Counted from the stretch's first letter, positions 2,780-61,578 are shown. The stretch: DNA of 61,578 bases from a virus (IMGVR_UViG_3300032047_000009:1-61578), one strand, 5' to 3'. A program made the numbers and translations. The notes: generated by a model from the sequence alone, not told the origin.

Positions 2780-2783
2780 TTAA

Positions 2784-3899: not shown

Positions 3900-3902
3900 T
3901 TG

Positions 3903-4649: not shown

Positions 4650-4670
4650 ATTTTATTTTTTTTTATAATA

Positions 4671-4696
4671 GTTAGGCCACATAAAGCGGCCTAACC
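4671..4696. terminator. Intergenic hairpin (terminator or processing site)
   Basis: gttaggccac-ataaa-gcggcctaac inverted repeat; no clear U-tract on the coding strand. Confidence 0.4.
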
Positions 4697-4707
4697 GTTA
4701 TATGTGA

Positions 4708-5445
4708 CTATTTTAATCTTTTTTCCAATGTTTGGAAAACTTCAACTCCTTCATCTGTCTTAAACCAAGCTGCAAGCGCAGAGTATGGGTTTTCATCAAA
4801 AGGTACAGTCATTAATTTTCTACCATTACTAACCCACTGAAAAGTTCTTTGGTCATTTGATAGTTTTATTATGTTTGCTTCAACGCCTTTTAAACCTACA
4901 TTCCTTAAGTTTACATTTTCATCAGCTGCTAGTTCTAAAAATAATTCTGGATCATTATTAGCAAAAACTAATAAATCTCTTTTTATTTCTTTAGATGTCA
5001 TGTTAGCAACAGAAGATCCAACATTTACTCTTACTATTGCTTCAGCTTCATCTATATTTAAATTTTTAGCTGCATTTAAAGCTTCTATTCTTTGTTCAAG
5101 CTCTACTAAGTCATCTTTAGCCTCTTCTTGTGGATCATACTCAAAGTATAATTTATTTAATCCAGGGTGATATAAAGATAATAATTTTTGTAGTGTTTGT
5201 TTTTGTTTTGGTACTATTAACATACCATCTTCAAATATAATGTGACCTAATCTAGCATCACCTTTGAAATCATCTACAAATGGAGTTTTTTGGTTAACAG
5301 TATATTTTAATTCTCTTTCAAAACCTTGCTCTTCATCAAACCAATATATGTTTTTACTTTTCATTGTAAAGGTTAAAGGAGATAGGTCGTTTTTCAGTAT
5401 ATATGTTCTATCCTTGATAGACCATTTATTTTTTGTTTTTGTCAT
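4708..5445 (-). CDS. Hypothetical virion-module protein
   Basis: 245 aa ORF directly after MCP. Confidence 0.6.
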   Translation of the reverse strand: MTKTKNKWSIKDRTYILKNDLSPLTFTMKSKNIYWFDEEQGFERELKYTVNQKTPFVDDFKGDARLGHIIFEDGMLIVPKQKQTLQKLLSLYHPGLNKLYFEYDPQEEAKDDLVELEQRIEALNAAKNLNIDEAEAIVRVNVGSSVANMTSKEIKRDLLVFANNDPELFLELAADENVNLRNVGLKGVEANIIKLSNDQRTFQWVSNGRKLMTVPFDENPYSALAAWFKTDEGVEVFQTLEKRLK

Positions 5446-5464
5446 GATATAATATAATAAAAAT

Positions 5465-5510
5465 TAATAAAAGTAATAATTACCCCCGTTGATAAAACGA
5501 GGGTAAAAAT
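5465..5510 (-). terminator. Rho-independent terminator after MCP
   Basis: Minus strand reads ttaccctcgttttatcaacgggggtaa followed by a T-rich tract. Confidence 0.55.
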
Positions 5511-5521
5511 TACGTTAAGTA

Positions 5522-6913
5522 TTATGCAAAGTTACCAAACAGTACGAAGTTATTCGCAGCTTGTACAACTAAACATCTTTCTGATAGGTAATGTACCTCC
5601 ATCGCATCAAGATCGCTAGTAGATGCTCCACCAACAGATCCTGTGATCCAAGATTTTAATTTTCTATCATCAGCTTGTGAAGCTCTGTATCTTACGTGTA
5701 AGAAAGGTCTTTTGATGTTTTTACCAAGAATTTGGTCATAAACAGATGAAGTACCCGCTGGTACTAATATACCTGTAACATCAGAAGCAATTTCTCCTCT
5801 AGTAGATGCATCGTTTAAGTATTTCCAGTCAGTTTTGTAGAAGTCATAAGAACCTCTTCTAAAACCAGAAAAACCTAAGTTGATCGCCATATCTTCAGAA
5901 TTATTAAATAATCCCCAAGAAGTACCACCAGAACCATAAGAGTTTTGAGCAGCTAACATATCATCAATATTTAAAGATAAATCTCTATTTAAAAATAATA
6001 CATTTTCCTCAATAGCTCCTTGCTTATCTAATTTCTTAAGCATGTTATCAAAATCAGCTAAATCATCAGAAGCAGAAGAACCGTCAATACCATCTTCATG
6101 GATGTGACCTCTATCTTTTACCGCAGCAAATAAACCTTCAGTTCCTGCGATGTCTGCTAAATTTGTATTAACATTTTTTTCTGATTCAATCATCGCCATT
6201 TCTAAGTAATCCTCGAATCTCTTTCTAGTATCACCTTCAGCTTTGATATACCATAAGTAACCTGACTGACCAGCTTCACCTGTAACTTCAACCCATCCAA
6301 TTTGAGAAGCATCAGATCCAGAGATCTCATATTTATCTTTTAAGATAATTGGGTTGTTAGTGTAAGACTGGAAACTTGGCTTAACCGCTTCGTTCATACC
6401 AGTGTCAGCTTTTTTGAATTCAGAACCGTATACGAAAAGTTTAATTCCAGATCCAGCTGTTAAACCTCCACCAACACAACCAGTAGAGTTTGTGTAACAT
6501 TTAACTGTTATTGCTGATGAAGCAACCGCTGATACATAAGCTTTTACGACAGCTGTACCATCACTTACCACTACGGTTTGTCCTACTCTAATAGCGTGAT
6601 CAGTAAGTCCTGTTATAGAATTTGAACCACTCGAATCAGCTACTAGTGTACCACCTGAGTAAGATAGGTGTAATCTTCCTTGTTCTGACCAAATGATTTG
6701 ATCTGAACTCATAGGCATTTCTGCGCCTACCATTTTTAAAAACCCACCAACAGATCTATCACCGAACTTTTCGATCTCTGCTTCATATAAGTCTGGAAGA
6801 TATTGTTGCGCCCATCCTTTTTCTGCAGCCGATGTAAAGTCAATGTAGTTTGTTGACAAAGTTTGTTTAACTGGAGCTGGAGTTGTAGTTCCGCTCCCTA
6901 ATGTAATTGCCAT
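5522..6913 (-). CDS. Major capsid protein
   Basis: 463 aa; WAQQYLPDLYE, IIWSEQGRLH, GFSGFRRGSYDFYKTDWKYLND; follows portal and scaffold; downstream terminator. Confidence 0.8.
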   Translation of the reverse strand: MAITLGSGTTTPAPVKQTLSTNYIDFTSAAEKGWAQQYLPDLYEAEIEKFGDRSVGGFLKMVGAEMPMSSDQIIWSEQGRLHLSYSGGTLVADSSGSNSITGLTDHAIRVGQTVVVSDGTAVVKAYVSAVASSAITVKCYTNSTGCVGGGLTAGSGIKLFVYGSEFKKADTGMNEAVKPSFQSYTNNPIILKDKYEISGSDASQIGWVEVTGEAGQSGYLWYIKAEGDTRKRFEDYLEMAMIESEKNVNTNLADIAGTEGLFAAVKDRGHIHEDGIDGSSASDDLADFDNMLKKLDKQGAIEENVLFLNRDLSLNIDDMLAAQNSYGSGGTSWGLFNNSEDMAINLGFSGFRRGSYDFYKTDWKYLNDASTRGEIASDVTGILVPAGTSSVYDQILGKNIKRPFLHVRYRASQADDRKLKSWITGSVGGASTSDLDAMEVHYLSERCLVVQAANNFVLFGNFA

Positions 6914-10563: not shown

Positions 10564-12768
10564 TTATATTATTTTTGAAGAAAATCCTCTGTTATCGTAT
10601 TTTTTAAATCCAAAATCTAGTTTTTTAACTACTTTATCCGCTCTAGGAGTATATAAATGCCTATTACAAGCCATTATAGCTAATCCAGAACTTATAGTAG
10701 CATCAAATTTTGTTCTATTTGTTATATCAAACTTTGACCAATCATTTAATGTTCTATTAAAATACATAGAACCGTAAGATCCATCAGGTTTTATTCCTAC
10801 ATGTTGCTGTATATATGTTTCTATTGCAGCAGCATGAGCTTGTTTAATATCTTCACCTGTATTAGGTATACCACCAACTTCTTTTTCTGTTGTTGATAAT
10901 CTACTATATGTTTTATCAGGTCTATTCATAGAATACCCTCTATAACCTCTTCTTTTTAAGTAATAAAGTAAACGAGGTTTGTTGTTTTCAGCTAATAGTG
11001 GCATCCCATAAAAAACTAAAGACATAAGTACATCTTCAAAGAATATTTCTGCAGTTTGTGGTCTTGCAACATATTCTAAAAAAAATGTATTTATTGGCGC
11101 ATCTTCCATGCTAAATTTAGTTAAACCATGTAAAGAACCTTTAGATCCTCTTCTGTCAACAGTACCTGATATATCATAAGAGTCACAACCAAAAGCACCA
11201 ATATGTTCATTACCTGGTTTTTTAAAACCATTTTTCATTACAACATTGTTTTGTAAATTCATTTGTGGAATCCATGAAATATAAAATCTACCTTTCATAT
11301 CGGGATAAAAATTAACCTCAGTATCCTTAACTCCATTTTTCCATTGAAAATTACCTCTAGTAACAATACCACTACTTTTTAAATCTTCGTTGTAATCTAT
11401 TTGCTCATATAATTTAACTAAGTTAAATATACTATTTTTTGTTTCATCTCTAAAAGCATGTTCCTCTGTTCTTGGAAACTGTCTATAAAACTCATTTAAA
11501 GCATCATGATTGCTTTTTAAACCATCTGCTTCATTTTCCCAATGTTCAATGACCCCGATGTCGATAGTTTCACCATGAGGTCCAATAGCTGCTTCTTTTG
11601 GTGTGTCGAATACAGGTAATCCATAAGTATCAATGAATCCTTCGTAATTCCATTCCATAGGTATAAACAAACTATATAATCCAGAGCGAGTCTGTCCATT
11701 TTTATTTCTTTTTGTGACGTCTGAATCATAATATAATTGTTTAAAATTATTTCCACCTTTATCAAGAGAGTTACTTGTTGAACCCATCATACATTTACCT
11801 ATAATTCTACTACCTAACCTCAAGGTTGTTTTTGTAACCCTCCAGTTATTCAATATGTTTTCTGGTCTTTCCCATTTTCCAGCTTCATCATGTACAAGAA
11901 GTGCAAGCTTTTCACCATCATAACTGTTATCACCCGTATTTTTCCAATCAATGGTTGTATCTAATCCCTCCATTTCTTGAGGTTTATCTTTAGATTCTAG
12001 TCTTTTACGTGTAAATTTTGATGCAGGTACTCTATATGCAAGCTCAGTTTTAGGTCGATCCATACCATCTTGTATAGGTCTAAAAAAAAATGGATAATTA
12101 ATCGATATTGGTACTACTTTATCTGTAAACATTTTTTTAGCATCAGCTCCAGATTTAGACAATATACCATAGCGTGCGTCAGAAGATATAGTTGCTAAGT
12201 TGACAGTTTCTCCTGATGCCATAAATGAAAAACCTGAACGTCTATTTTTAAGATAGCACATTCCATAACATCGTTTATCTGCTTTACATGCTTCCCAGAA
12301 AATAAAGAATAATCTGTTTGCTTCTCTAAAATCAGGTCTTCCGACATCAATTTTTGTCCATTGCAAGTACATATAATGAGTCCCAGTAATATAAGTAGAA
12401 TTGCCCTTATTATTGAACCAATGACCTTCTTCACGTCTCGTAAACTCTCTGTCAATATATTTATGCCATTTTTCTTTAAATTCATTTGGTAGTTCTTTCC
12501 AGTCAAATATACTTTTAATTCTTTTTAGTTCCTTAGGATATTCGTGTTGTTGCCATTTATTGTTTTCATTAGAAACTTTTTGTGTTTTAGGCAATGCTAT
12601 TTTTAAGTTCTGTATGCTATACACATCTCCTATTTCACCTGTTTTACTTATAACTACTAAATCATATTCTTTGTTATAACCATACTCCCATTTTTTTGAT
12701 TTATTCAATCTATTAATAGTAGTTTTTTTAATAGGTTCTATTATTTTATATAAACTTTGTTCGTACAT
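10564..12768 (-). CDS. terL: Terminase large subunit
   Basis: Walker A-like LKNRRSGFS, Walker B LLVHDEAGKW, motif III MGST, nuclease FGCDSYD and KFDATISSG. Confidence 0.9.
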   Translation of the reverse strand: MYEQSLYKIIEPIKKTTINRLNKSKKWEYGYNKEYDLVVISKTGEIGDVYSIQNLKIALPKTQKVSNENNKWQQHEYPKELKRIKSIFDWKELPNEFKEKWHKYIDREFTRREEGHWFNNKGNSTYITGTHYMYLQWTKIDVGRPDFREANRLFFIFWEACKADKRCYGMCYLKNRRSGFSFMASGETVNLATISSDARYGILSKSGADAKKMFTDKVVPISINYPFFFRPIQDGMDRPKTELAYRVPASKFTRKRLESKDKPQEMEGLDTTIDWKNTGDNSYDGEKLALLVHDEAGKWERPENILNNWRVTKTTLRLGSRIIGKCMMGSTSNSLDKGGNNFKQLYYDSDVTKRNKNGQTRSGLYSLFIPMEWNYEGFIDTYGLPVFDTPKEAAIGPHGETIDIGVIEHWENEADGLKSNHDALNEFYRQFPRTEEHAFRDETKNSIFNLVKLYEQIDYNEDLKSSGIVTRGNFQWKNGVKDTEVNFYPDMKGRFYISWIPQMNLQNNVVMKNGFKKPGNEHIGAFGCDSYDISGTVDRRGSKGSLHGLTKFSMEDAPINTFFLEYVARPQTAEIFFEDVLMSLVFYGMPLLAENNKPRLLYYLKRRGYRGYSMNRPDKTYSRLSTTEKEVGGIPNTGEDIKQAHAAAIETYIQQHVGIKPDGSYGSMYFNRTLNDWSKFDITNRTKFDATISSGLAIMACNRHLYTPRADKVVKKLDFGFKKYDNRGFSSKII

Positions 12769-13040
12769 TATTTAGATCTTCTTTCAGCAAAACCTTTAAA
12801 ACTCTGTTCTTTTTTTTCTATAGGTTTATTTTCTAATAAACTTTCTTCTTCCTGTATCCTATTTAGTATTTCAAAAGCATCAAATATAGCTAGTTTTTTT
12901 GTAGCAGCAGCATTCTTTAATCTATCAGCAGATATATCATCATCTGAATCTACTATAGGTTCTTTAGCTACTTTTATTAATTCATCTACAGCTTTATGTC
13001 CAGCTTGGATTATATTCTTTTTCGTGTCCTTGACGTTCAT
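12768..13040 (-). CDS. Putative terminase small subunit
   Basis: 90 aa helical protein (ADRLKNAAATKKLAIFDAFEIL) translationally coupled upstream of terL. Confidence 0.45.
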   Translation of the reverse strand: MNVKDTKKNIIQAGHKAVDELIKVAKEPIVDSDDDISADRLKNAAATKKLAIFDAFEILNRIQEEESLLENKPIEKKEQSFKGFAERRSK

Positions 13041-13581
13041 ATTTTATACAAATTGATTTAATTGGAACTCTATATAGTCTTTCGTTATCTATAATAAATT
13101 CATATTCACTATTTGGAGTAAATCCAATTAGTGTATTTTTTTTAATAATTTTATTGTTTTCTATATACTTAACGATACCTATTAATTCACTTTCCTTTTC
13201 TGTAGAAAAAAACTTATTTTTTTCAATAGGTTTTACAAAACAAAAATCATCAATTGATTTCCATGTTTTATTTTGTTTATACATGAAAATTTGATCTAAA
13301 TAAATAAAATACTTATTTTCTTTAAAGTAAGATGAACTATCTACTTCTTCACCTCTTATATTATTATATCTTCTAAATATATTATGATGAACTATTACTT
13401 CATCTCCTATTTTTATATTTGTTTTTATGTTTTTAGGTACAGATAATATAATTGCATTTCTATTAACATATCTATGATCTTGTATCTCGGTATTTAATAT
13501 TAAGTTTTTTTCACCTACTTTTTTAATATTATTATATCTTGATTTAATAGGTTCAACAATAAAAGCATATAAACTTTGCAT
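12994..13581 (-). CDS. GroES-like protein, probably two tandem GroES-type folds
   Basis: FIVEPI..ILSVP..IKIGDEVIVHH, then FCFVKPI..IGIVKY..LIGF..EYEFIIDNERLYRV. Confidence 0.5.
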   Translation of the reverse strand: MQSLYAFIVEPIKSRYNNIKKVGEKNLILNTEIQDHRYVNRNAIILSVPKNIKTNIKIGDEVIVHHNIFRRYNNIRGEEVDSSSYFKENKYFIYLDQIFMYKQNKTWKSIDDFCFVKPIEKNKFFSTEKESELIGIVKYIENNKIIKKNTLIGFTPNSEYEFIIDNERLYRVPIKSICIKYERQGHEKEYNPSWT

Positions 13582-17595: not shown

Positions 17596-17849
17596 ATAAC
17601 AATAACAACATCTTGTTGTCTAATAACATAATATGTTTTATCGTTATATTCGACCATATGGCCAGCATGTTTATCATAATAAATTTTATCATTTGGTTTT
17701 AAACCATCTGTTTGGTTACCAACACTTATTACGTGACCTTTTAAATAACGTATATCTTTTTTATCATTATTAGTTAATATAAGTCCATTAACTTTTTTTG
17801 ATTCTTCTTTTATTTTTTCTATTATGATGTAATTATTTATCGCCTGCAT
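17592..17849 (-). CDS. groES: Co-chaperonin GroES
   Basis: MQAINNYIIIE..NGLIL..GHVISVG..LKPNDKIYY..YYVIRQQDVV; overlaps the groEL stop. Confidence 0.85.
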   Translation of the reverse strand: MQAINNYIIIEKIKEESKKVNGLILTNNDKKDIRYLKGHVISVGNQTDGLKPNDKIYYDKHAGHMVEYNDKTYYVIRQQDVVIVI

Positions 17850-19392
17850 TCATTCTCATATTAGAAATTACACAATCTGCAGATATTATAGTACTAACAA
17901 CACTAACTGCATTTTTTAAAGCTGTTTTTGTAACTAATACAGGATCTATTATTCCAGCCTTTAACATATTAGTTTCTTTACCATTTACAACATTTATTCC
18001 AAATCCTTTTTTATTACTTTCTAAGTATGGTAAACCAGCATTTTCTATTATAACAGAATAAGGATATTTTATTGAGTTTAATAATATTTCTTCTCCTACA
18101 TTTTCAGCTTTAATTTTTTGTGATGCATTTAAAAGTGCAACTCCACCTCCTGGAACAATACCTTCTTGTAGCGCTGCTTTAGTTGCATATATCGCGTCTT
18201 CAACTCTGTCTTTTTTTTCTTTTAACTCTACTTTTGAATTAGCACCAACTTTTATAATAGCAACAGAACCTGTCAACATTGCTATTCTTTGTTCTAATTT
18301 ATTTTTTATAAAAGCATTAGTCTCTGTTTCTATTTTGCTATACACACTTTTTATTCTTTCTTTAGCTTCTTCATTAACTTCATCTATAGTAAGAACAGTG
18401 TTTTTATCATCTGTAATGGACTTTAAGCATTCACCTAACACATCAGGTTGGATTAAGTCTAAATCATCTCCTAGTTGCTCATCTATTATTTTAGCCCCAG
18501 TTAAACAGGCTAAATCTTCTATCGTATCTCTTTTAGTAGAAGCAAAACCAGGAAGATCAACAACGTTAACCCTAATATTACCTTTAACTTTATTAGTTAA
18601 TAATGCAGACATAGGCTGTTGATCTACAGAAGCCACAATTAATAAACTTCTTTTTGTTTTAATTATATGTTCTAATACAGCTTGTATTTTTCTAATATTA
18701 GTAATTGGAGAAGCTACTATTAATATATAAGGATTATCTAAAATAGATTTATCTTTATTTTCGTTTGTAGTTAAATGATTTGATTTCAAACCAGAGTCAA
18801 ACTGTACACCTTCTACGTTTTCGTAATAAGTTTTTTCAGTTTCTGACTCTTCCATTAATACAACTCCATTTTTACCCACCTTATTGTAGGCATCAGCAAT
18901 TATAGAACCTAAAATACTATCATTGTTAGCCGATATAGTGCTAACATCTTTAAGTTTATCATGTTTAACATCAATAGATATTTTATCTAAGTAATTATTT
19001 ATTTTAAATAAACCGGTTTGTAAACCTAGTTTTATATCTCTTATGTTATATTTTTCTTTTTTACAATTTTTTAAAAGTGAGTAAGCAAGGACGGTTGCCG
19101 TAGTGGTACCGTCTCCTGCTTCTTTCACTGTGTTTTTAGCAGCTTCTTTTAAAAGTGTTGCTCCTATATTTTCTAAAGGATCAAATAATATTACTGATTC
19201 AGCTACGGTTACACCATCTTTAGTTATAACCGGTTTACCTAATGAATCTTCATATATTACACATTTTCCTGAAGCTCCTAGTGTAGACTTAACAGCTTGT
19301 GTTAATTTTCCTACACCTATCATTATTTTATTGTTAGCATCTGCCCCGAAGGACAAATCTTTAACTATCTCACTTGGGTTATTATATTCCAT
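17833..19392 (-). CDS. groEL: Chaperonin GroEL (phage-encoded)
   Basis: VITKDGVTVA, AGDGTTTATVLA, ELKEKKDRVEDA, GIVPGGG, GIIDP; no GGM tail. Confidence 0.95.
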   Translation of the reverse strand: MEYNNPSEIVKDLSFGADANNKIMIGVGKLTQAVKSTLGASGKCVIYEDSLGKPVITKDGVTVAESVILFDPLENIGATLLKEAAKNTVKEAGDGTTTATVLAYSLLKNCKKEKYNIRDIKLGLQTGLFKINNYLDKISIDVKHDKLKDVSTISANNDSILGSIIADAYNKVGKNGVVLMEESETEKTYYENVEGVQFDSGLKSNHLTTNENKDKSILDNPYILIVASPITNIRKIQAVLEHIIKTKRSLLIVASVDQQPMSALLTNKVKGNIRVNVVDLPGFASTKRDTIEDLACLTGAKIIDEQLGDDLDLIQPDVLGECLKSITDDKNTVLTIDEVNEEAKERIKSVYSKIETETNAFIKNKLEQRIAMLTGSVAIIKVGANSKVELKEKKDRVEDAIYATKAALQEGIVPGGGVALLNASQKIKAENVGEEILLNSIKYPYSVIIENAGLPYLESNKKGFGINVVNGKETNMLKAGIIDPVLVTKTALKNAVSVVSTIISADCVISNMRMNAGDK

Positions 19393-53396: not shown

Positions 53397-53425
53397 AAAA
53401 GGGGGATTAATTAACCCCCTTTTTT
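53397..53425. terminator. Bidirectional terminator at the convergence point
   Basis: aaaa-ggggg-attaattaa-ccccc-tttttt. Confidence 0.8.
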
Positions 53426-54061
53426 CATTATTACCTTTGTTGAATTAACAATATCTCTACCGGACCTATTGTTATTATAATTATTAATATCTTGCCTAGG
53501 TGTTATTTTAGATTCAAATCTATTTGGATTTTCTCTTGGCTCAACTTTTATGTTATTATTCCAACTTCTGGAAACATTATTAGGATTTTTATAAATTCTT
53601 TCTTCTCTATAATCTACTTTCTTTCTTAATTTATTTGCTATAATATCTACATTTGCTGTTCTTCTTCTTTCTTTCATTATAGCTATACTACGAGGCTCTT
53701 CATACATATAATATCTTGGTATTCTATAATTAAAATAAGGGTATCCAAAAGCCCAATCGTACCAAAAATTATGTCTATTCCAATACATATCAAAAGAATT
53801 AAACGGATTCCAAAATCTAGCAAACGACGCAGACGAGTAAAATGAGAACGGCTGATTAGATGCAAACTTAGCGTAGTTCCATCTAAACGTAAAGCTATCT
53901 CTCATCTTCCAACTTAATCTTGTATAAGATAACGTATCTATCTTTACAGTGCTAGGCACTTTTAATACTACAAACTTAGTAGGCTTATGGTTGATAGTAG
54001 ATAATTGAACAGCTCCACACCCTGTTAATATTAATAATAAAATTAAAATATATTTTTTCAT
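53411..54061 (-). CDS. Lipoprotein with a W/Y-rich core and N/R-rich tail
   Basis: Lipobox MKKYILILLLILTG|C. Confidence 0.65.
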   Translation of the reverse strand: MKKYILILLLILTGCGAVQLSTINHKPTKFVVLKVPSTVKIDTLSYTRLSWKMRDSFTFRWNYAKFASNQPFSFYSSASFARFWNPFNSFDMYWNRHNFWYDWAFGYPYFNYRIPRYYMYEEPRSIAIMKERRRTANVDIIANKLRKKVDYREERIYKNPNNVSRSWNNNIKVEPRENPNRFESKITPRQDINNYNNNRSGRDIVNSTKVIMKKGG

Positions 54062-54513
54062 ATAACCATATATTTAGTTTTACCATCTTCTTTATAAGCT
54101 TTTAAACATCTTTTTCTATTTGAATCGGCATCTACATAGCTCACGTGTACCCAGTCTGGGTTTTGATCGGTACCAAACTCCCAAATCATTTGATCGTAAT
54201 CTAAGTTTGCTTTTATATATTGGTACATATCAGCATTAGACATATAACCATATGTATCATCTAAATCCATTGCTCTTCCTTGGCAATGTTGTGATTTTGA
54301 ACTTCCGCCAATTGCTTTATTTAATTCTTGTGAACGAAAGAATGAATTAATTTTAATTGGTCCATTAACATGTTTTCTTAATGGCTCAAATATCTTCTCA
54401 GCAATTAATTCCATGTTCTGTAATTCATACTCACCAGGTGTATTATCTATACCTTTTCTAGTTGCTGTTGCACTAAACGTTGCTTCTTTTTTACTAATGT
54501 GTTTGCTAATCAT
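54058..54513 (-). CDS. Peptidase M15 endolysin
   Basis: INSFFRS..LNKAIGG..SQHCQGRAMD..WVHVSY. Confidence 0.85.
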   Translation of the reverse strand: MISKHISKKEATFSATATRKGIDNTPGEYELQNMELIAEKIFEPLRKHVNGPIKINSFFRSQELNKAIGGSSKSQHCQGRAMDLDDTYGYMSNADMYQYIKANLDYDQMIWEFGTDQNPDWVHVSYVDADSNRKRCLKAYKEDGKTKYMVI

Positions 54514-54516
54514 TTT

Positions 54517-55929
54517 TTATAATTTAAATTTACCGCCTATTGTTATTGAATATGTTAATGGAAATGAGTCTGTGCTTTTAGCTACATTAAAACCTAAATT
54601 CATTCTAAAGGTTTTAGTTATAGAAAAATCAAAGTTAGCACCACCCACAAATAAAGCGTGCTCATTAAAAACAAATCCATTATCTAAAGTACTGTAACTC
54701 ACTGGTGTTAGTGCGGTAGCTAACATGGGTGATACAGTAAATCTTTTAAAATTGTAAGGCTTAGTGCCAAACACTACAAAGGCTGGCATTATGTTCCACT
54801 CGCCTTGACTGTATAAAATATTATTAGAAGCAGATATACCTCCAACAAATCCTTTCCACTTATTTTCTTTTTGGCCAATATATACATTACTAATACCGAG
54901 GGACATATTGTAAACACCATACATATACATTAATCCAGCTGATAATGTTTGTACGTTTGCAATACTACCTTTATCATAATAATGACCAAACACATATTCC
55001 TTACCATCTTCTATAATTATCACGGGTACTTTTTTATCGTATCTATGGAATGTATGACCTCTTGATCCACTTAAACTAAATTGTTTTAAGTTATCCCATA
55101 TCATCATGTTTGCAGAGTAATTGAACTCACCATTCATAGATGATTGTGCAAAGCCAATACCTATAACTTGATTTGCTGCGCCATCTAATCCTGACATACG
55201 CATTAAATTAGCAGATATAATTATAGGGTTTGTGTTTTTCTTTTTCTTTTTTTTATCTTCTTCTTCCTCTTCTTCTTCAGTTTCCTCTTCCTCTTTTTCT
55301 TCTTCTTCTTCTTCTTCTTTCTCTTCTTCCTTTTCCTCTTCTTTTTCTTCCTCTTGTTCTTCTTCTTTTTGTTCTTCTTCATTATCGCTATCGTCAGAAT
55401 CATCAGAGTCGCCGCTATCATCACTATCATCAGAATCGCCACCATCATCTCCTCCATCATCACTATCGCCTCCCCCATCATCAGAGTCACCACCACCGTC
55501 GCTGTCTCCTCCACCATCTGAATCGCCGCCGGAATCACCACCACTGTCTCCAGTGTCACCACCACTATCTCCTCCAGAATCAGAACCACCCCCTGAATTA
55601 TCAGTCGATCCACTTCCGCTAGAATCAGAACTATTATTTGTGTTTGATGTAGATGTTTGCGTAGTTGTTTGCGTGGTCTGTGCTGTTGAGCATGCTGACA
55701 ATGCATACCACCAAGCGTAAGTTTGCTCCATCCAAGTTCTTAATGCGCCACTGTAAAAATCATTAGCAGTAAAAGTTTTTGTTCTATTATAAAAGGATAC
55801 TGTTGTGTATCCTTCCATTTGAATTGAAACTCTTTTAATCTCTCCGGTACATCTATCCGCAAAGGCTTGTACTAATGTTTGAGAATATATACTTGAGGAA
55901 AATAATAATAATATTATTATTTTTTTCAT
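54517..55929 (-). CDS. Exported protein with a G/D/S-E low-complexity linker and a predicted outer-membrane beta-barrel
   Basis: Signal peptide; alternating amphipathic strands; C-terminal YSITIGGKFKL. Confidence 0.6.
   Translation of the reverse strand: MKKIIILLLFSSSIYSQTLVQAFADRCTGEIKRVSIQMEGYTTVSFYNRTKTFTANDFYSGALRTWMEQTYAWWYALSACSTAQTTQTTTQTSTSNTNNSSDSSGSGSTDNSGGGSDSGGDSGGDTGDSGGDSGGDSDGGGDSDGGGDSDDGGGDSDDGGDDGGDSDDSDDSGDSDDSDDSDNEEEQKEEEQEEEKEEEKEEEKEEEEEEEKEEEETEEEEEEEDKKKKKKNTNPIIISANLMRMSGLDGAANQVIGIGFAQSSMNGEFNYSANMMIWDNLKQFSLSGSRGHTFHRYDKKVPVIIIEDGKEYVFGHYYDKGSIANVQTLSAGLMYMYGVYNMSLGISNVYIGQKENKWKGFVGGISASNNILYSQGEWNIMPAFVVFGTKPYNFKRFTVSPMLATALTPVSYSTLDNGFVFNEHALFVGGANFDFSITKTFRMNLGFNVAKSTDSFPLTYSITIGGKFKL
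55230..55640. repeat. Low-complexity coding repeat (GGDS, DDS, poly-E, poly-K)
   Basis: (tct)n and (cca/tca)n runs inside the 54517..55929 gene. Confidence 0.9.
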
Positions 55930-56648
55930 TAATGATCAAATATCTTTTTTCTTATCATTCGTTTAACGACTTTAGCAACCGCAGTTTCTAAAGCTTTTTT
56001 AGTCGATGTACCAATTGATGATTGGTTGAACTTAACATCTTCTAAATTCTCATTATTTAATAAAGTTAACTCTCTTGTTGTTGTAGCTTTACCTAAGCCA
56101 GACCCGGTCATGTATAATCCAGTTTCAGAATCAACAAGCTTAACCTGCAGACCTAATCTTGTAACTAATTTATTTTTAATACCGTCTTTTAAATTAACAG
56201 TTTCATCTTCTGATATACTGAAATCGTATACCTCTATATAACAAAAGTATTTAGCTAAAACTATTTTACCTATAGGATTTATTACATTAGCTGTAAAACC
56301 TTTCTCACTTGCTTTGAATTGTTTAATCATTCTGTCTTTTATTTCATCTCTTGTTTCTACAAACTCAAAACGAAACGTTTCATCTAAGAACGCTACAGTT
56401 ATATTAGTTAAACCTAATCCAACCCTATAATCACCTAATTCAGGATACTGATTTAATATTTCTTCAGTAACACCAATGTTAAGCAAGGCTACAGATACGG
56501 GGTCACCATTATATTCTGGTACACTCCATATAGATTCTCTTGACTCAAAGCTACCAACGTAATCTTCGGTTGTTGTTTTTCCAATTACTTGACTATGAAC
56601 AGAAGCCACAGCCGATACAAATATCGCACATAGTATAAATTTTTTCAT
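55929..56648 (-). CDS. CsgG-like (curli transport channel family) protein
   Basis: Signal peptide; VGLGLTNITVAFLDETFRFEFVE..AKYFCYIEVYDF..LGLQVKLVDSETGLYMTGSG..KKALETAV, matching the CsgG layout. Confidence 0.7.
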   Translation of the reverse strand: MKKFILCAIFVSAVASVHSQVIGKTTTEDYVGSFESRESIWSVPEYNGDPVSVALLNIGVTEEILNQYPELGDYRVGLGLTNITVAFLDETFRFEFVETRDEIKDRMIKQFKASEKGFTANVINPIGKIVLAKYFCYIEVYDFSISEDETVNLKDGIKNKLVTRLGLQVKLVDSETGLYMTGSGLGKATTTRELTLLNNENLEDVKFNQSSIGTSTKKALETAVAKVVKRMIRKKIFDH

Positions 56649-56649
56649 G

Positions 56650-56880
56650 TTACCAATCTATTTCTCTTTCTTCTTTCTTTGGTTTTTGTATAACTGTTTT
56701 AGTTATAACCAAAGTATCTTTTACAACACTCGGGGGTATTGTTATTGTTTGTTCCATTGTTGGTGGAGGTGAATCATCTTCAGGGCTAAATATGGCTTCC
56801 ATGTTAGCTATGAGTATTCCACCAGCTGCAGTTATAATTAAACCTACTGTAGCTATTATTTGATTTTTTAATTCCTTCAT
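56650..56880 (-). CDS. Single-TM protein with a Pro-rich linker
   Basis: IIATVGLIITAAGGILIA then DDSPPPT..PPSVVKDTLVI. Confidence 0.6.
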   Translation of the reverse strand: MKELKNQIIATVGLIITAAGGILIANMEAIFSPEDDSPPPTMEQTITIPPSVVKDTLVITKTVIQKPKKEEREIDW

Positions 56881-56881
56881 A

Positions 56882-57241
56882 TTACTTCATTGAAAAGGTT
56901 TGTCGACCTATGAATTGATTGTTTTTAGTATACAGCTCCACGGTGTATGAGCTAACTGGCAATGAATTAACGTATATATTTAATATGTTATCTCCTTCTT
57001 TGCCTTTTATTATTTCTTGATTAATTATAGTATTTGTGAAATCTAATATTTTAATTCTATAATCACCATCAGAAGGTAACTTAGTATTTATTCTTACTTT
57101 ATCTTGTACTATATAGCTTTCAAGTTTTAAACCTACAGCTTGAGGCATAAATAAAGATTGTGGCACTTCTTGTATTGGTCTTTCATTGTATACCTCCGTG
57201 GTACAACTTATAAATAAAAATAGTATAAAAAGTTTTTTCAT
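56882..57241 (-). CDS. Lipoprotein made of a T9SS type-A CTD-like Ig domain
   Basis: Lipobox ILFLFIS|C; KVRIN..YRIKILDFTNTII..GDNILNIYVNSLPVSSYTVEL. Confidence 0.6.
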   Translation of the reverse strand: MKKLFILFLFISCTTEVYNERPIQEVPQSLFMPQAVGLKLESYIVQDKVRINTKLPSDGDYRIKILDFTNTIINQEIIKGKEGDNILNIYVNSLPVSSYTVELYTKNNQFIGRQTFSMK

Positions 57242-58866
57242 TATTGTATTTTTAAAATTACTTTAGTTCCATCGCTTGTAACAGCATCTGTTGTTTTAAA
57301 ATAAATTAAACCCGATGCATTTGTTACGGTTTGTTTTGTATTAAATATAATTTTATAAGGTTTACCAACCTTGATGCTTTCTTGGTTCTCTACACTAATG
57401 CTACCAAAATATAATTTATTATCGCGCTCTGTTGCAAAATTAGTTAATAGATTGCCTGTATCGAATTGAACCTCTTCAAATTCTAATATAGTATCGTCAA
57501 ACTGAATTACAAATTGCATGCCCGCTAAATAATCTTTTTCGAGCTCAACTAATAATTCCACTTTATCGTTAACTAAACTTGTTGAAATATCTAAATCTAA
57601 ATTTTCAATTTTACCCTGCACACTAGGCATCCTTGGAATTCCTTCGTCATCGTCTTCAACAATAGGCTCAAAAGAATGTGAAAAATCTACATCTCCAATA
57701 AGTCCGTGACCAAAATCAAAAACCTTATTAGAATCAGTAGGTGTAAAATGTTTTTTTTGTCCGAAATAATAATCGTCCGTAGCATACCCATATTGAGTTT
57801 TTTCACCCCAAATATCTTTAGCACCGTTAGTAGAGCTGGTAAAATATTCACTAATGTTTTCGTCCATTATGTGGCTTAGCATAACGTAGGAATCATCAAA
57901 GTCTACGTTGCCACTATTATTAACCTCTCCTAATAAAGATTGTAGAGCGTGCGTAAACGTACTTGCTGAACTACTTGGGCTAGAACCAGCGCCAATAGCC
58001 TCTTTAAATACTAAAAATACATCAGTAACAGTGACCACATCATCTAACCAATCCGACGCTAATTCATTATCAACAGTAATGTTAATATTGTATTTAACAT
58101 CGTTTTCTAAACCGGTTACAATAGCTTGGGAATTAGCATCAAAGTTACCACTAGCTATACTATTATTATTACTTAATATATCGTATTTGTAATGTGTTGG
58201 TTTGTCGTTCTCTGTTTTAAGATTTATAGTAACACTACCCGCATCACCACCTTCAACGTTCGATAATGTTATTTTTTGCTGCATTGCATCAACATCGTAT
58301 TTTGTTGATGTTGAATTATCCTCAGCTCTCATCCAGTTAAGATGTGTTACATTATTATAATTACTGTAGTTAGTATTAATCTTATCTTTAATTTTAAAAT
58401 CAACTTCAATTAAAGTATTATTATATGTTATACCTACACCATCTTGAATCGTTATTCTTTCAACTGACCAATCGTTATCCGTGGGATATGAATTAGTATC
58501 TCCTTGAACTTGTGTTCTATTAAACCAACCGTGTAAATATTGTGCTGAAAGATTATCTTCATCATAAGTGCTTAAAACCTTATATTTATAACCGTCCCAG
58601 TGTGTTAACGATGTTTGTGCGTTTGTGTTAGCTGAGTTATCGGTTACTTTAAATCTATGAGCAATCTTTTGTAGCAATTTGTTATTGTACTCATAATCAA
58701 ATATATACAAGTTGGGATCTACATTTTCTGTAACCTGTATTGTATTAAACTTTATTGTTATAGTATCACCAACCGCAAAATCCTCGGCGTTTGTGTAACT
58801 GTGATCAAGTTTTAAGTCTTGCGATAAACAGAATAATGGTAATAATAAAAACAATAGTTTTCTCAT
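57241..58866 (-). CDS. Exported protein with cohesin-like and dockerin-like domains
   Basis: Signal peptide; VGDTITIKF..FDYEYNNKLL; DVVTVTDVFLVF and GEVNNSGNVDFDDSYVML; C-terminal LAGMQFVIQFDDTILEFEEV. Confidence 0.6.
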   Translation of the reverse strand: MRKLLFLLLPLFCLSQDLKLDHSYTNAEDFAVGDTITIKFNTIQVTENVDPNLYIFDYEYNNKLLQKIAHRFKVTDNSANTNAQTSLTHWDGYKYKVLSTYDEDNLSAQYLHGWFNRTQVQGDTNSYPTDNDWSVERITIQDGVGITYNNTLIEVDFKIKDKINTNYSNYNNVTHLNWMRAEDNSTSTKYDVDAMQQKITLSNVEGGDAGSVTINLKTENDKPTHYKYDILSNNNSIASGNFDANSQAIVTGLENDVKYNINITVDNELASDWLDDVVTVTDVFLVFKEAIGAGSSPSSSASTFTHALQSLLGEVNNSGNVDFDDSYVMLSHIMDENISEYFTSSTNGAKDIWGEKTQYGYATDDYYFGQKKHFTPTDSNKVFDFGHGLIGDVDFSHSFEPIVEDDDEGIPRMPSVQGKIENLDLDISTSLVNDKVELLVELEKDYLAGMQFVIQFDDTILEFEEVQFDTGNLLTNFATERDNKLYFGSISVENQESIKVGKPYKIIFNTKQTVTNASGLIYFKTTDAVTSDGTKVILKIQ

Positions 58867-59327
58867 AGTTTTAATTTCTTAATAATGTTTTCGGATAATT
58901 TTTTTAACGCAACGCTTACACTATTTTGTGTAAACTTACCTTGTTCATTTAATAAAATTAAAGATGTAGTTATATCTTTTGATGTGCCTTTTACTTTTAC
59001 TTTTTTCTTTTTATATTTAGCAATAGCAATTATTTCGGTTTGACTCGATGATTTGCTATACAACGCAATATTTGACTGAGTACGTTTTACATCAAAATAA
59101 ATTAGTTCAACATCTAAAACATTTTTACTTCTATCATTTAAGTTATAATCTTGATCCTGAACCACTTCCTCTAATATGTTTTTCAAACCAAACCCAACGT
59201 TCTTATTGCCGACTAAAGGACCAGTTTGAATTGAATTTTTTATATCGTTTATTTTAATATCTTGTGCAGATATTATTGTACAAAACAATAAACTACTTAT
59301 TAGATTGATTTTTTTTATGTATGTCAT
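58863..59327 (-). CDS. Exported alpha/beta protein, distant CsgG/LptE-like
   Basis: Signal peptide; VGFGLKNILEEVVQD..LDVELIYF..VSVALKKL parallels VGLGLTNI..KKAL of the CsgG-like gene. Confidence 0.5.
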   Translation of the reverse strand: MTYIKKINLISSLLFCTIISAQDIKINDIKNSIQTGPLVGNKNVGFGLKNILEEVVQDQDYNLNDRSKNVLDVELIYFDVKRTQSNIALYSKSSSQTEIIAIAKYKKKKVKVKGTSKDITTSLILLNEQGKFTQNSVSVALKKLSENIIKKLKL

Positions 59328-59457
59328 ACCATCGGGCTATTGTAAAACCTATAGAAACTAACAATAATATTATTTTTAATATTGTTTCCATCTCTGTCAT
59401 AGATAGTGTAAGTGTTGCACCATTAAAGGCCATTAGTTTAATATCTTGCCATTCCAT
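59293..59457 (-). CDS. Small holin-like membrane protein (54 aa)
   Basis: MEWQDIKLMAFNGATLTLSMTEMETILKIILLLVSIGFTIARWYDIHKK. Confidence 0.55.
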   Translation of the reverse strand: MEWQDIKLMAFNGATLTLSMTEMETILKIILLLVSIGFTIARWYDIHKKNQSNK

Positions 59458-59459
59458 AG

Positions 59460-61578
59460 TTAATTATATTTTTTTCTTTTTGAATATCTGCTTGATGCAG
59501 AGTTGTTTGGTCTAATTTTTCTTGTTTTTCTTTTACCTTTTGATCTTATAGAGTAATAACTATCATCTGGTTCAAAGTTTACGGTCCACCTGTTCCAACC
59601 AGATAATAATGCTATTTTTTGCCATGTTTCTGTTTCAACATCTAAAGCGTCTTTAACGTTTCTAGCTTTTGAAACAACCCTATCTAAGGGCACATTAAAA
59701 AATGAAGCAGAGCTACCTATCATATCTAATACAGGATTTTCTATAGATATACCCATTTTTTTAAAAGATTTTTTTTTATACTTGTAATCTGTCAAAGCAT
59801 CATACATGTCTCTATATTTAATACCTATTGAAGGACCAATATTAAAAACTTCACCTATAATTGCAGCCACATCAAATTGTCCTTTTCCTTCCTCAACTTT
59901 TTTGTTTTCGTCATATAACTTTTTACTAGCATTTTTTACCATTGAAAAAATAGCACCTTTAATGCCCGTACCTCTAACTAATGTATCTAACATGTTGTTT
60001 GCTATATAACTTATTTTTCTTTCATTTCTTTTTGTTTCTTCGTCTTCATCTTCTCCTGGAAATAACATACTAAATAAACCTTGTTGTAATGCAGCAAACA
60101 TCATATTTTGTAAAAATGAATAATATAATATTTTACTTACTTTTTCTTTTGGATTACCTCTACCATTTATTAAATCTAAACCGGCTTTTTCTATTAATCT
60201 AGTATATTGCATTGGTGTGTTTTGAAATGATAATATCCATTTACCAGCGGTGCTAGTCTGTTGCATTGATAATCTATCAGCTCTTGCAGACTGTTGTGTT
60301 TCTTCAGTAACCTCTTGAAAATCTATAAAAGCTTTTCTTTCTGCTTCTACTTTTGAAAAACCTTTTGCTGTATATGTATTTATTCTATTTCTGTAAAAAC
60401 TAGCTCCACCCGCGGCAATCGCAAAAGCATCACCAGCTTTAGTAAAAACAAAACCTTTTTGTAAAACTAAACCTAAAACACCTTTAAATCCTTTATTTCT
60501 CTTAATTGCATCAGCAATCTCTGCCTCGTTAACATCAGTTCTTAAACCTCCCCTTCTTTCTTTTAAAAAATCAGAATACATTATGTATTTGAAATCTTTT
60601 GCCCATTGTGTAGGGTTTCCTACCAACGCCTTGCCAAAATGATATATATTGTTGTCTGACCAATTAATATAATTAAAAGTAGATAATGTTTGTAGTGATG
60701 CTGTTCTAGTGTTTAAAAACATTGTGGACGCAACAGAACCTCTCACCCAATTTAACGCTCCATTCATGAAACGATCATTTTTGTTTGAGAGTTTTCCAGT
60801 TTCCATTCTAGTTAAAATATTTAGTAATGCTTTTAAATACTTCTCACCATAAGTTGCTCTTATTTTATTTATATTGTTTTCACTAAAAATAGCATTTTTA
60901 TTCTCAATAAAAGGTCCTAAGAATTTTTTCCTTGAAAGTTGATCTATTGATCTAAGTATATCTTGTCTAATAGTATCAGTTTGCCATGAGTTAACATCTG
61001 GATCTATCCAATATGAATCTTGTCTCATAATACTAGATAAATTACTAGCATATTTTAACATTTTATTACCTGGATATGTTATTATTTTTCCTTTTATTTT
61101 TTGTAGCGTTGCATCATTAACACCAGGAACTTTAGAACCATTTTTAGTATAGAGGTATATTCTTAATGCTTGATCATAGTTAAAACCAGAAATTCCAGTT
61201 TCTTTCTCCATTTCTTTGTGGAAATTAGGATTATCTTTTAAAAACTGTTTATATTTTCTACTAGATAATTGTCTAGATATATCTAATGACATTACTGCTT
61301 TACTAAAAGGTTTTATTAAGTTATCAGTAAAAAATTCTAATTGTTTTTCTCCTTTTTTTCCTTTACCAAGAAAACCATAAAGAAGACCAGCTAAATCTTG
61401 TGCAGAGTGATCCATTATTCTCCACATTTTTTTTCTAGTAGTAGCCAAATTTTTTGAAGTTGCAACATCAATTATGTCATCTAAAGAATATCTTTTATCT
61501 TTTGCCGACAACATTAAACCCATTTGTGATTCTAATTTCAATGTTTTTACTTCATCATTAAAATTAACTTGACTTAAC
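59460..61578 (-). CDS. C-terminal part of a very large virion (ejected core-type) protein, truncated by the right edge
   Basis: Frame stays open to 61578; helical; EETQQSARADRLSMQQ, FQNTPMQY. Confidence 0.55.
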   Translation of the reverse strand, partial: LSQVNFNDEVKTLKLESQMGLMLSAKDKRYSLDDIIDVATSKNLATTRKKMWRIMDHSAQDLAGLLYGFLGKGKKGEKQLEFFTDNLIKPFSKAVMSLDISRQLSSRKYKQFLKDNPNFHKEMEKETGISGFNYDQALRIYLYTKNGSKVPGVNDATLQKIKGKIITYPGNKMLKYASNLSSIMRQDSYWIDPDVNSWQTDTIRQDILRSIDQLSRKKFLGPFIENKNAIFSENNINKIRATYGEKYLKALLNILTRMETGKLSNKNDRFMNGALNWVRGSVASTMFLNTRTASLQTLSTFNYINWSDNNIYHFGKALVGNPTQWAKDFKYIMYSDFLKERRGGLRTDVNEAEIADAIKRNKGFKGVLGLVLQKGFVFTKAGDAFAIAAGGASFYRNRINTYTAKGFSKVEAERKAFIDFQEVTEETQQSARADRLSMQQTSTAGKWILSFQNTPMQYTRLIEKAGLDLINGRGNPKEKVSKILYYSFLQNMMFAALQQGLFSMLFPGEDEDEETKRNERKISYIANNMLDTLVRGTGIKGAIFSMVKNASKKLYDENKKVEEGKGQFDVAAIIGEVFNIGPSIGIKYRDMYDALTDYKYKKKSFKKMGISIENPVLDMIGSSASFFNVPLDRVVSKARNVKDALDVETETWQKIALLSGWNRWTVNFEPDDSYYSIRSKGKRKTRKIRPNNSASSRYSKRKKYN

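Follow-up and report, generated by a model that had tools for sequence, protein, structure and literature searches.

The IMG/VR virus record IMGVR_UViG_3300032047_000009, a DNA stretch of 61,578 bp (linear class, CheckV completeness 56%; hereafter the window), carries on its minus strand, between positions 54517 and 59327, six co-oriented and translationally coupled open reading frames (ORFs), termed g1 to g6 in order of transcription, which lie inside a lysis cassette (Table 1). An initial annotation had described them as an outer-membrane or secretion-like operon of tightly coupled genes, placed in the lysis region with a holin-like gene upstream and an M15 endolysin and a lipoprotein downstream. 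We recovered the same six ORFs and the same neighbours: the junctions consist of ATGA or TAATG overlaps or of gaps of 1 to 3 nt, the overlap between the holin-like ORF and g1 measures 35 nt, the M15 endolysin begins 3 nt past g6, and translational coupling continues through the endolysin and a 216-residue lipoprotein. Every one of the six products starts with a signal peptide, a lipobox or a membrane anchor, as had also been noted; these export signals were assigned by eye. In g1, g2, g5 and g6 the hydrophobic N-terminus is followed by a glutamine (signal-peptidase-I type), which agrees with the Q-rule described for Bacteroidetes proteins cleaved by signal peptidase I (PMC5837995), and secreted phage proteins that follow the Q-rule have been noted earlier (PMC10367356).

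Table 1. Features of the coupled gene unit and its flanks in the window, in order of transcription.
Feature	Coordinates	Strand	Basis
Holin-like small membrane protein, 54 residues	59293..59457	-	ORF; by eye, a single hydrophobic stretch with a charged C-terminal end
g1, small exported CsgG-fold-like protein, 154 residues	58863..59327	-	Short relative of g5; weak Lipoprotein_16 (YajG-type) similarity
g2, exported protein, 541 residues	57241..58866	-	Variable N-terminal half, dockerin-like segment, C-terminal cohesin-like domain
g3, lipoprotein, 119 residues	56882..57241	-	Beta-sandwich resembling the C-terminal domain (CTD) of type IX secretion system (T9SS) cargo, or DUF3244
g4, single-pass membrane protein, 76 residues	56650..56880	-	Pro/Ala-rich charged tail, invariant C-terminal Trp
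g5, exported CsgG-fold protein, 239 residues	55929..56648	-	AlphaFold2 model, Foldseek, VIA-align, Pfam matches of relatives
g6 protein, 470 residues	54517..55929	-	N-terminal two-Cys domain, acidic linker, C-terminal 12-strand-type barrel
M15 peptidase endolysin	54058..54513	-	PF08291, E 2.9e-16 (60 bits against a 23.2-bit cut-off); phrog_894, E 3.4e-30
Lipoprotein of 216 residues, last gene of the unit	53411..54061	-	ORF; ATGA-coupled to the endolysin
Terminator-like hairpin	53402..53419	-	7-bp stem with 4 GC pairs, T-rich tail; consensus match only

Scans of Pfam, PHROGs and NCBIfam covered the ten proteins of the unit. NCBIfam gave no match for the unit proteins, and PHROGs gave no significant match for g1 to g6, the best being that of g1 to a tail terminator (E 0.044). 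As direct family scans of the window proteins yielded almost nothing, the names given to g1, g2, g3, g5 and g6 rest on relatives, profiles and structural models. The curli partners CsgA, CsgB, CsgE and CsgF, which had been reported as not visible, were absent from all three scans of the ten proteins.

The arrangement of the six genes is widely conserved. We fetched a first set of 35 IMG/VR loci with g5 as bait, and in all 35 the genes are collinear on one strand, a regularity that exceeds chance; tblastn detected all six in 20 of the 35 (g1 in 32, g2 in 33, g3 in 33, g4 in 21, g5 in 35 and g6 in 35). The order recurs in a wider set of 80 loci, which was kept from a profile-based scan reaching down to 54% identity and was searched with hidden Markov models of the six families (g1 in 73, g2 in 79, g3 in 49, g4 in 78, g5 in 79 and g6 in 76). 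Across the first set the median identity of g5 is 81% versus 42-62% for the other five genes, a comparison biased by the use of g5 as bait, and g2 is the fastest-diverging gene (identity range 24-96%). Relatives of g5 are encoded on at least 522 IMG/VR stretches, and at E ≤ 1e-3 the protein collection contains 5391 clusters of the g5 family. Neither a megablast search of the region nor a tblastn search with g2 found a match among isolated phages; the isolated Flavobacterium phage vB_FspM_immuto, whose host is Flavobacterium sp. LMO8, carries the module as gp013-gp018.

A profile scan with an 11-sequence alignment subset also placed g5 relatives on ten contigs of metagenome-assembled genomes (MAGs). 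Three of the contigs, all from Bacteroidota (L039, L040 and L042), hold a phage-type module beside endolysin genes. In MAGs of Ignavibacteriales, Cloacimonadota and Nitrospinota, a lipoprotein matching the CsgG Pfam family is followed by a protein with a barrel-like end, the CsgG-like copy of locus L047 itself having no Pfam match, and the neighbours of such cellular CsgG-like genes are caspase-like, cyclase or T9SS-cargo genes. Homology of these barrel-like neighbours to the g6 family could not be demonstrated with hhalign for L046 (probability 7) or L047 (0.7); among the cellular pairs of CsgG-like and barrel genes it was found only for L045, through the N-terminal domain of g6 (probability 96.6). 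None of the cellular contexts of g5 relatives that we examined is a characterised host operon matching the module.

We then turned to the individual families, beginning with g5, which the initial annotation had called CsgG-like. The window's own copy has no Pfam match at E ≤ 1, and a direct sequence search against the PDB gave none. A phmmer search of 1.84 billion representatives recovered 214 relatives at E ≤ 1e-3; among 35 distant relatives that were scanned, 18 match Pfam CsgG at E ≤ 0.01 and 15 lie above the curated cut-off. The two families are bridged in sequence by the relative P0242, which g5 finds at E 8.8e-21 and which itself matches Pfam CsgG at 1.9e-17, and a further relative, P0338, matches Pfam CsgG at 5.6e-24. 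The g5 family profile also detected the Escherichia coli CsgG sequence in the PDB (E 6.5e-4). An AlphaFold2 model of g5 built from 42 sequences (predicted local distance difference test, pLDDT, 78.5; predicted template modelling score 0.71) had CsgG as its best Foldseek matches (4uv2/4uv3; E about 1e-6, template modelling score 0.5-0.57, 212-245 columns), with the membrane-bound form 4uv3_A aligned over 240 columns. Superposition in VIA-align gave CsgG 6lqh_A at a Z score of 13.6 (root-mean-square deviation 2.8, 178 residues aligned), 3 units over the next match, followed by Cj1090c (10.5), PelC (9.0-9.8), LptE (8.5) and TraT (8.2). Among the named families in the ESM Atlas, g5 lies nearest to the CsgG/HfaB clusters (0.93-0.94). 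The CsgG likeness is thus borne out by the structural model and by relatives alike, without the lipobox of CsgG: the signal of g5 ends in ...ASVHSQ and has no Cys, as is general in the phage clade, whereas distant relatives do carry a ...GC lipobox.

The small protein g1 had been annotated as CsgG- or LptE-like, and profile comparison agrees. Aligned with the g5 family in hhalign, it gave a probability of 94.2 (E 1.1e-7, 130 columns), so that its identity as a small CsgG-like relative of g5 is well supported at the profile level. PF03923 matches 11 of 12 g1 homologues, weakly (best E 4.3e-6), and the window's own g1 falls under the 25-bit cut-off of that family (E 1.4e-4, 22.1 bits); the g1 profile found no match in the PDB.

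Some distant cellular g5 relatives are fused to a caspase-like Peptidase_C14 domain (4 of 35) or to a Ser/Thr protein kinase domain (2 of 35); the fusion-bearing sequences are P0255, P0257, P0304, P0338, P0280 and P0305. In Nitrospinota MAGs a CsgG-like gene lies beside caspase-SH3 genes. This caspase- and kinase-fused subfamily may act as a periplasmic scaffold and not as a pore.

The features of g5 that bear on pore formation differ from those of CsgG. In the profile alignment hairpin 1 (residues 134-173) is five residues shorter than its counterpart in CsgG and has a charged tip (SISEDETVN-LKD-GIKNKLVT), and the region of the second hairpin (195-207) is modelled at a pLDDT of 53-63. Because of the missing lipobox, the shorter and charged first hairpin and the poorly modelled second one, we filed g5 under divergent CsgG-fold proteins and not under curli channels. 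Its predicted hairpins appear to be of insufficient length, and too polar, to build a pore of the CsgG type, and the pore put forward in the initial annotation is therefore unsupported.

The last of the six genes, g6, combines three regions. Its N-terminal domain (approximately residues 17-95, about 65 residues) has two cysteines, 53 residues apart, that are invariant or nearly so; the pair fits a periplasmic disulphide. A linker of 154 residues follows (103-320 in relatives), consisting of 42% D+E and 47% S/T/G/N. The C-terminal domain of about 235 residues (approximately 237-470) is all-beta over residues 237-469 in the AlphaFold2 model, with a pLDDT of about 70-87. Foldseek matched it to KdgM (E 5.4e-7) and FapF (about 1e-6), and VIA-align to NalP (Z 22.5), EstA (21.4), AIDA-I (20.7), a COG4313 channel (20.0), KdgM (19.5) and FapF (18.8). 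The beta-barrel predicted for g6 in the initial annotation is accordingly recovered in the model, and a C-terminal outer-membrane beta-barrel of the 12-strand type is well supported by these superpositions. The C-terminal residue is aromatic (F or Y) in 18 of 27 homologues and L in the window copy. None of the 27 homologues matches a Pfam barrel family, and PF03797 is not among their matches, so that the barrel family is new at the sequence level. The Pfam matches that g6 did give (Mpp10, CIS_TMP, Presenilin and others) were rejected as artefacts of the low-complexity acidic linker. The linker helix has a pLDDT below 50, and no helix is confidently modelled inside the pore.

With a CsgG fold and a translocator-like barrel in one unit, the module could be a secretion channel, in which g5 as a CsgG-like pore or g6 as a FapF- or autotransporter-like translocator would export, independently of the host, an unfolded amyloid-like or adhesive polypeptide or the g6 N-terminal domain itself. 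The match of g5 to CsgG is nearly full length, the g6 barrel resembles the translocators NalP, EstA, AIDA-I and FapF, and the succession of N-terminal domain, long linker and C-terminal barrel mimics the layout of an autotransporter or of FapF. However, the first g5 hairpin is short and charged, the second is of low confidence and the protein lacks a lipid anchor; the Pfam scans of the unit proteins contain neither a CsgA/B/E/F nor a Fap partner, and there is no substrate gene. From what is generally known of autotransporters, the widely spaced Cys pair in the g6 N-terminal domain would argue for folding in the periplasm and against transit of a narrow barrel, and likeness to 12-strand barrels is generic, the porins KdgM and NanC scoring equally well. 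We consider a secretion channel unlikely.

The membrane protein g4 has a short N-terminus, one hydrophobic helix and a Pro/Ala-rich charged tail, of which the final residue, W76, is invariant among 16 aligned homologues; it has no match in Pfam, PHROGs or NCBIfam. Many relatives of the module encode an extra membrane protein of 58-80 residues between g4 and g5, ending in ...NATFG(I/V)FD... (for example L013:7756-7998, L025:7754-7969 and L036:7792-7989). This protein is absent from the window, where the gap between g4 and g5 is 1 nt.

The two remaining genes, g2 and g3, may link the module to the cell surface. In an alignment of 12 g2 homologues the N-terminal half varies and two parts are conserved, a pair of loop-helix motifs and the C-terminal domain, which in the window correspond to a dockerin-like calcium-loop/helix segment (approximately residues 275-335) and a cohesin-like domain (approximately 410-541). 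The window's own g2 has no Pfam match at all; Cohesin (PF00963) was found in 7 of the 12 homologues (best E 8.2e-6), the window copy not being among them, and the g2 family profile matched cohesins in the PDB at E 0.0019-0.05 (4ums, E 0.0019). Of the cohesin/dockerin likeness claimed for g2, the cohesin part is therefore supported at the family level, and the dockerin part is weakly supported. The g2 family also aligned in hhalign, at a probability of 92.4, with a protein of the Bacteroidota contig L042 that combines a cohesin domain with a T9SS CTD. A C-type lectin domain (Lectin_C) occurs in one g2 paralogue and in gp013 of phage immuto. In locus L031 two g2 paralogues lie in tandem (3269-4861 and 4863-6773), one of them with the C-type lectin, together with two tandem g3-like lipoproteins, which indicates that the cargo part of the module can be duplicated.

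Lectin-bearing relatives raise the question of whether the module is an adhesion or aggregation moron, through which infected cells (or, should the phage be temperate, lysogens) would stick to particles, algal glycans or each other by way of lectin-like heads of g2, the benefit arising via host ecology. The rapid divergence of g2 would fit such a role, cohesin-dockerin modules are classic surface scaffolds, and CsgG relatives of the HfaB type anchor an adhesin, as described in PMC6707917. Yet the genes sit in the late, lysis-associated unit of an apparently lytic-type genome, which leaves little time for an ecological benefit, and we judge this explanation improbable.

The annotation of g3 as a T9SS-CTD-like lipoprotein was upheld at the family level. 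Its lipobox reads FISC, with Cys13 invariant in 14 of 14 homologues, of which 11 match DUF3244 and 7 match Por_Secre_tail (best E 1.3e-7). In the window g3 is a stand-alone lipoprotein and not the C-terminal domain of a cargo protein; a search for g3 as the C-terminal domain of longer proteins found no match among 161 candidates, which is weak evidence. In lipoproteins of Flavobacteriaceae a C-X-K-(D/E)2 motif is described as a surface-export signal (PMC5080379). An acidic pair at +4/+5 past the lipid-bearing Cys is present in 7 of the 14 g3 homologues, and the exact motif in two.

Related phages carry the two parts in one protein. The immuto protein gp015 consists of a signal peptide, a Cohesin domain (5.9e-9) and Por_Secre_tail (2.4e-8), and the g2-like protein of L042 of Cohesin (5.3e-9) and Por_Secre_tail (1.9e-11), all above cut-offs. 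A further 16 g2-like ORFs (628-634 residues), from more distant IMG/VR loci, align end-to-end through the L042-type CTD, and all 16 are in loci without a separate g3. The module thus exists in two forms, one with a cohesin protein ending in a T9SS sorting domain and one, as in the window, with a separate CTD-like lipoprotein gene directly downstream. The complementarity of the fused and split forms suggests that g2 and g3 may work together and that the destination of the cargo would be the cell surface. The sister-phage cohesin protein presumably uses the host T9SS, so that the self-contained machine envisaged in the initial annotation is probably not what the module represents; a single earlier report of T9SS cargo encoded by a phage describes it as unusual (PMC7468147).

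As for its genomic setting, the window encodes a terminase, a portal protein, virion and tail-fibre proteins, GroEL/GroES, a primase-helicase and a ribonucleotide reductase, and is assigned to a tailed phage on the basis of the terminase, portal and virion or tail-fibre genes. The six-gene module probably belongs to the late operon of tailed phages of marine Flavobacteriia. The GroEL chaperonin (17833-19392; phrog_5725, E 8.6e-129) and a GroES-like co-chaperonin (12994-13581; phrog_13932, E 2e-18) are both encoded inside the structural region. No integrase was present among the 25 large window ORFs scanned, small ORFs lying outside that scan. Large genes are cut at both ends of the window. The left one (2-2779) matches the N-terminus of a 1474-residue virion structural protein family (phrog_14478, E 5.7e-60), and the right one (59460-61577) is the C-terminal part of a protein of 1414-1748 residues that precedes the holin in relatives and has no Pfam or PHROG family match. 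The idea that the two ends are halves of one gene, as in a circular genome, was rejected, there being no similarity between the two end genes; since each end interrupts a different large gene, the record represents a fragment.

The proximity of this large same-strand gene, directly upstream of the unit, could suggest that g1 to g6 are virion structural proteins or chance ORFs and form no envelope system. Against this, all six carry export signals or anchors, with one barrel, two CsgG folds and one lipobox among them, synteny is kept across the 80 loci, and no significant match to a structural PHROG was obtained, which makes this explanation very improbable.

Of the genes that flank the module within the unit, the holin-like ORF has only a weak PHROG holin match (phrog_920, E 0.08), with relatives in 15 of the 35 loci of the first set (tblastn). 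The terminal 216-residue lipoprotein is basic (isoelectric point 10.2) and rich in Trp, Tyr, Phe, Asn and Arg; it has relatives in only 3 of the 35 related loci and no match in Pfam, PHROGs or NCBIfam. A sigma-70 promoter scan was uninformative, with 44 sites versus 45.5 expected. Contigs from RNA libraries (4 runs, 3 studies) span 17-25 of 30 bins of the region 53400-59500 and cross several gene junctions, such contigs being no proof of transcription or of a single transcript, and bins without cover carrying no meaning.

The position of the module between a holin-like gene and an endolysin prompted a survey of neighbouring lysis genes in 41 loci, for which lysis proteins were clustered with BLAST and a single member of every cluster was examined in Pfam. 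In 34 of the 41 the module has a lysis gene no more than 3.5 kb away, and these genes are of four unrelated kinds: M15 (13), Amidase_2 (6), PG_binding_1 with GH19 (7) and Phage_holin_4_1 (8). In L026 an Amidase_2 endolysin gene (2707-3198, E 4.7e-17) is found inside the module itself, between g4 and g5. Four complete loci (L029, L031, L032 and L033) have no lysis gene within 3.5 kb, and three of the 41 do not extend far enough for a verdict. Of the 80 loci in the wider set, 72 show a BLAST match to a lysis-type protein within 6 kb and 60 a peptidoglycan-hydrolase-like match, two of the query families being unverified as hydrolases. In phage immuto the endolysin is about 6 kb from the module. 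As the linkage persists across unrelated endolysin types, it would reflect either a functional connection or the fact that module and lysis genes both lie where the late operon ends.

The main rival to a surface-remodelling role is suggested by this linkage: the module would be a lysis accessory, an envelope-spanning complex that helps to breach the outer membrane, or to detach it, once the endolysin has acted, as a Bacteroidota-specific equivalent or helper of spanins, with g4 in the inner membrane, the g6 barrel and its periplasmic tether, g5/g1 rings and g3 as an outer-membrane lipoprotein. Apart from the neighbourhood of unrelated lysis genes, the amidase inside the L026 module and the matches of the wider set, this proposal draws on the translational coupling of the module to both the holin-like gene and the endolysin, on the fact that no spanin-like pair is visible among the window ORFs, and on the possibility that g4 together with g6 or g3 could bridge the periplasm. 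On the other hand, seven relatives (L018, L019, L020, L025, L036, L027 and L034) carry a separate spanin-like pair besides the module, so that it is no simple spanin replacement. Moreover, g4 lacks the coiled-coil periplasmic domain of an inner-membrane spanin, g3 is predicted to be a folded sandwich of about 100 residues and not a short Pro-rich outer-membrane spanin, and a lectin-, cohesin- and T9SS-tagged protein has no obvious role in membrane fusion. The four complete loci without a nearby lysis gene and the distant endolysin of immuto also count against it, and accessory genes are common at late-operon ends in any case. We regard a lysis accessory as a possibility, if a rather doubtful one.

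In the relatives with a separate spanin-like pair, an inner-membrane-spanin-like protein encoded downstream of the endolysin is overlapped by a gene for a protein of 140-156 residues (for example L018:10801-11139 with 11033-11455, and L027:10622-10927 with 10851-11321). The latter protein has a signal of the signal-peptidase-I type and no lipobox, and its C-terminus in L027 and L034 (...YRLF or ...YKLF) resembles that of a small outer-membrane protein. Bacteroidota phages may here encode an outer spanin partner of the barrel type.

Altogether, the module is probably an outer-membrane or surface complex, and we favour, at a probability of about 0.42, the reading that the six exported proteins come together at the outer membrane of the host and change the surface of the infected cell at about the time of lysis. 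In this scheme rings or scaffolds of g5 and g1 beneath the outer membrane would combine with the g6 barrel into an anchor or assembly platform; the g6 N-terminal domain, with its conserved Cys pair, would be periplasmic and hang on the long acidic tether, and g4, by means of its Trp tail, might connect the platform with the inner membrane. The g2 and g3 products would reach the surface, through the T9SS of the host where they are fused and by lipid anchoring in the window phage, and at the surface cohesin-dockerin contacts and lectin-like heads could build a coat or an adhesin layer. The platform would then work like HfaB, which places holdfast anchor proteins, or like the PelC ring serving PelB, and not as a free-standing CsgG pore. 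Since the module is coupled to, and would be co-transcribed with, the holin and endolysin genes, the coat would appear late. It is tempting to speculate that its benefit lies in masking receptors on the dying cell and its debris, thus protecting progeny and excluding superinfection, or alternatively in altered adhesion; for the purpose itself, whether receptor masking on dying cells and debris or the exclusion of other phages, our preference is tentative and falls short of even odds. The purposes put forward in the initial annotation, namely outer-membrane lysis, superinfection exclusion, aggregation and defence against grazing, are likewise candidates.

Several observations weigh against the assembly of such a coat. 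Receptor masking is pure conjecture, the signal peptides were called by eye, and the link to lysis genes, including the endolysin inside the L026 module, fits a lysis role at least equally. With the g2 profile, dockerins in the PDB appear only at E 0.13 and 0.61, with no Pfam match, which leaves the dockerin call weak. The window's g3 falls under the cut-offs (DUF3244, E 9.5e-5; Por_Secre_tail, PF18962, E 0.021, 15.5 versus 27 bits), the comparison of the g3 family with the bona fide L042 CTD in hhalign was not significant (probability 2.5), and the sequence past the lipid-bearing Cys in the window (C-T-T-E-V) is no convincing surface-export signal. The window's g2 lacks a CTD and may stay in the periplasm.

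A bolder version of the surface-assembly reading presents the module as a widespread, hitherto undescribed virus-encoded outer-membrane machine of Bacteroidota phages, with two CsgG-fold rings, a tethered 12-strand barrel, a Trp-tailed inner-membrane connector and a lectin/cohesin-dockerin coat delivered partly via T9SS, switched on with holin and endolysin. We hold this to be possible, though on the unlikely side; if true, lysis and surface remodelling would be one programme.

The consequences reach beyond this one record. Flavobacteriia are major degraders of algal carbon, and the outer-membrane step of phage infection and release is poorly understood outside Proteobacteria. Should the module remodel or breach the outer membrane, it would show how phages of Flavobacteriia handle that step and would represent a new use of the CsgG fold, and the isolated pair of phage immuto and Flavobacterium sp. 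LMO8 makes the question directly testable. The gene has surfaced before: in one survey of marine phage sequences 'csgG' was the commonest of the listed 'virulence genes', no mechanism being put forward (PMC7003362), a UniProt entry names CsgG in an uncultured phage, and GenBank labels immuto gp015 a 'cohesin domain-containing protein'. We found no published description of the six-gene module in the open-access literature. On the present evidence phage 'csgG' is not an isolated part of a curli system but forms the conserved centre of an envelope module of six genes in fixed combination, which is associated with lysis cassettes and with cohesin proteins that bear a T9SS tag.

The module can be compared with several known systems. 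With CsgG (PF03783; 4uv3, 6lqh), g5 shares the predicted fold over about 180-240 residues and is linked in sequence via intermediates, g1 being a shorter relative; it differs in lacking the lipobox, in its shorter and charged hairpin 1 and uncertain second hairpin, in the absence of csgA/B/E/F and in that the window's own copy has no Pfam match. HfaB is described as the CsgG-like hub of the outer-membrane anchor complex of Caulobacter, needed to place the holdfast anchor proteins (PMC6707917). In the favoured reading g5 would resemble it as a CsgG-like outer-membrane hub that serves surface anchor or adhesin proteins and not curli, whereas the HfaB partners HfaA and HfaD are unrelated to the module and that complex, as described, is cellular and not viral. 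The PelC-PelB system (5t0z, 9h80) likewise pairs a CsgG/LptE-type lipoprotein ring with a separate barrel, and PelC, besides its VIA-align score, matches g5 in Foldseek at E 1.3e-6; in contrast, PelB is a larger barrel exporting polysaccharide, g6 matches it only at Z 10.3, and the module has no polysaccharide genes.

For g6 the nearest counterparts are the 12-strand barrels (NalP, EstA, AIDA-I, FapF and KdgM/NanC), on which its predicted barrel superposes at Z 18-22.5; its layout resembles that of an autotransporter or of FapF. Its passenger-like domain, however, comprises only about 65 residues with two Cys, and the barrel belongs to no Pfam barrel family. A type Va autotransporter consists of a beta-helical passenger, a pore helix and a PF03797 barrel; the g6 model matches the barrels of NalP, EstA and AIDA-I in fold, PF03797 is not among the matches of the 27 homologues, and the linker helix is of low confidence.

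The surface components have parallels as well. As in cellulosomes, the g2 family has cohesin matches, both in Pfam and in the PDB, with a duplicated, dockerin-like calcium-loop/helix segment upstream, but g2 has no attached enzymes, places both modules in one polypeptide, gives a dockerin match that is not significant, and occurs in a Gram-negative host and a viral context. The closest phage precedent is the 'Cryophage' T9SS cargo, described in PMC7468147 as type-A sorting domains on phage genes with a presumed hijacking of the T9SS, likewise seen here in immuto gp015, L042 and the 16 IMG/VR relatives; the cargo described there consists of single enzymes, whereas here it is a cohesin protein within a fixed multi-gene module, the CTD-like part being a separate lipoprotein in the window.

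Finally, lysis or tail modules are known to contain or adjoin genes for envelope proteins, such as the spanins (Rz/Rz1), which pair an inner-membrane anchor with an outer-membrane lipoprotein, and the exclusion lipoproteins T5 Llp, Cor and TraT. TraT is a weak structural match of g5 (Z 8.2). Two-component spanins differ from the module, which has no coiled-coil inner-membrane spanin, no short Pro-rich outer-membrane spanin and no embedded genes, and which comprises six genes in place of one or two. The parts of the module are therefore of known kinds, and their fixed combination in a phage lysis unit appears to be new.

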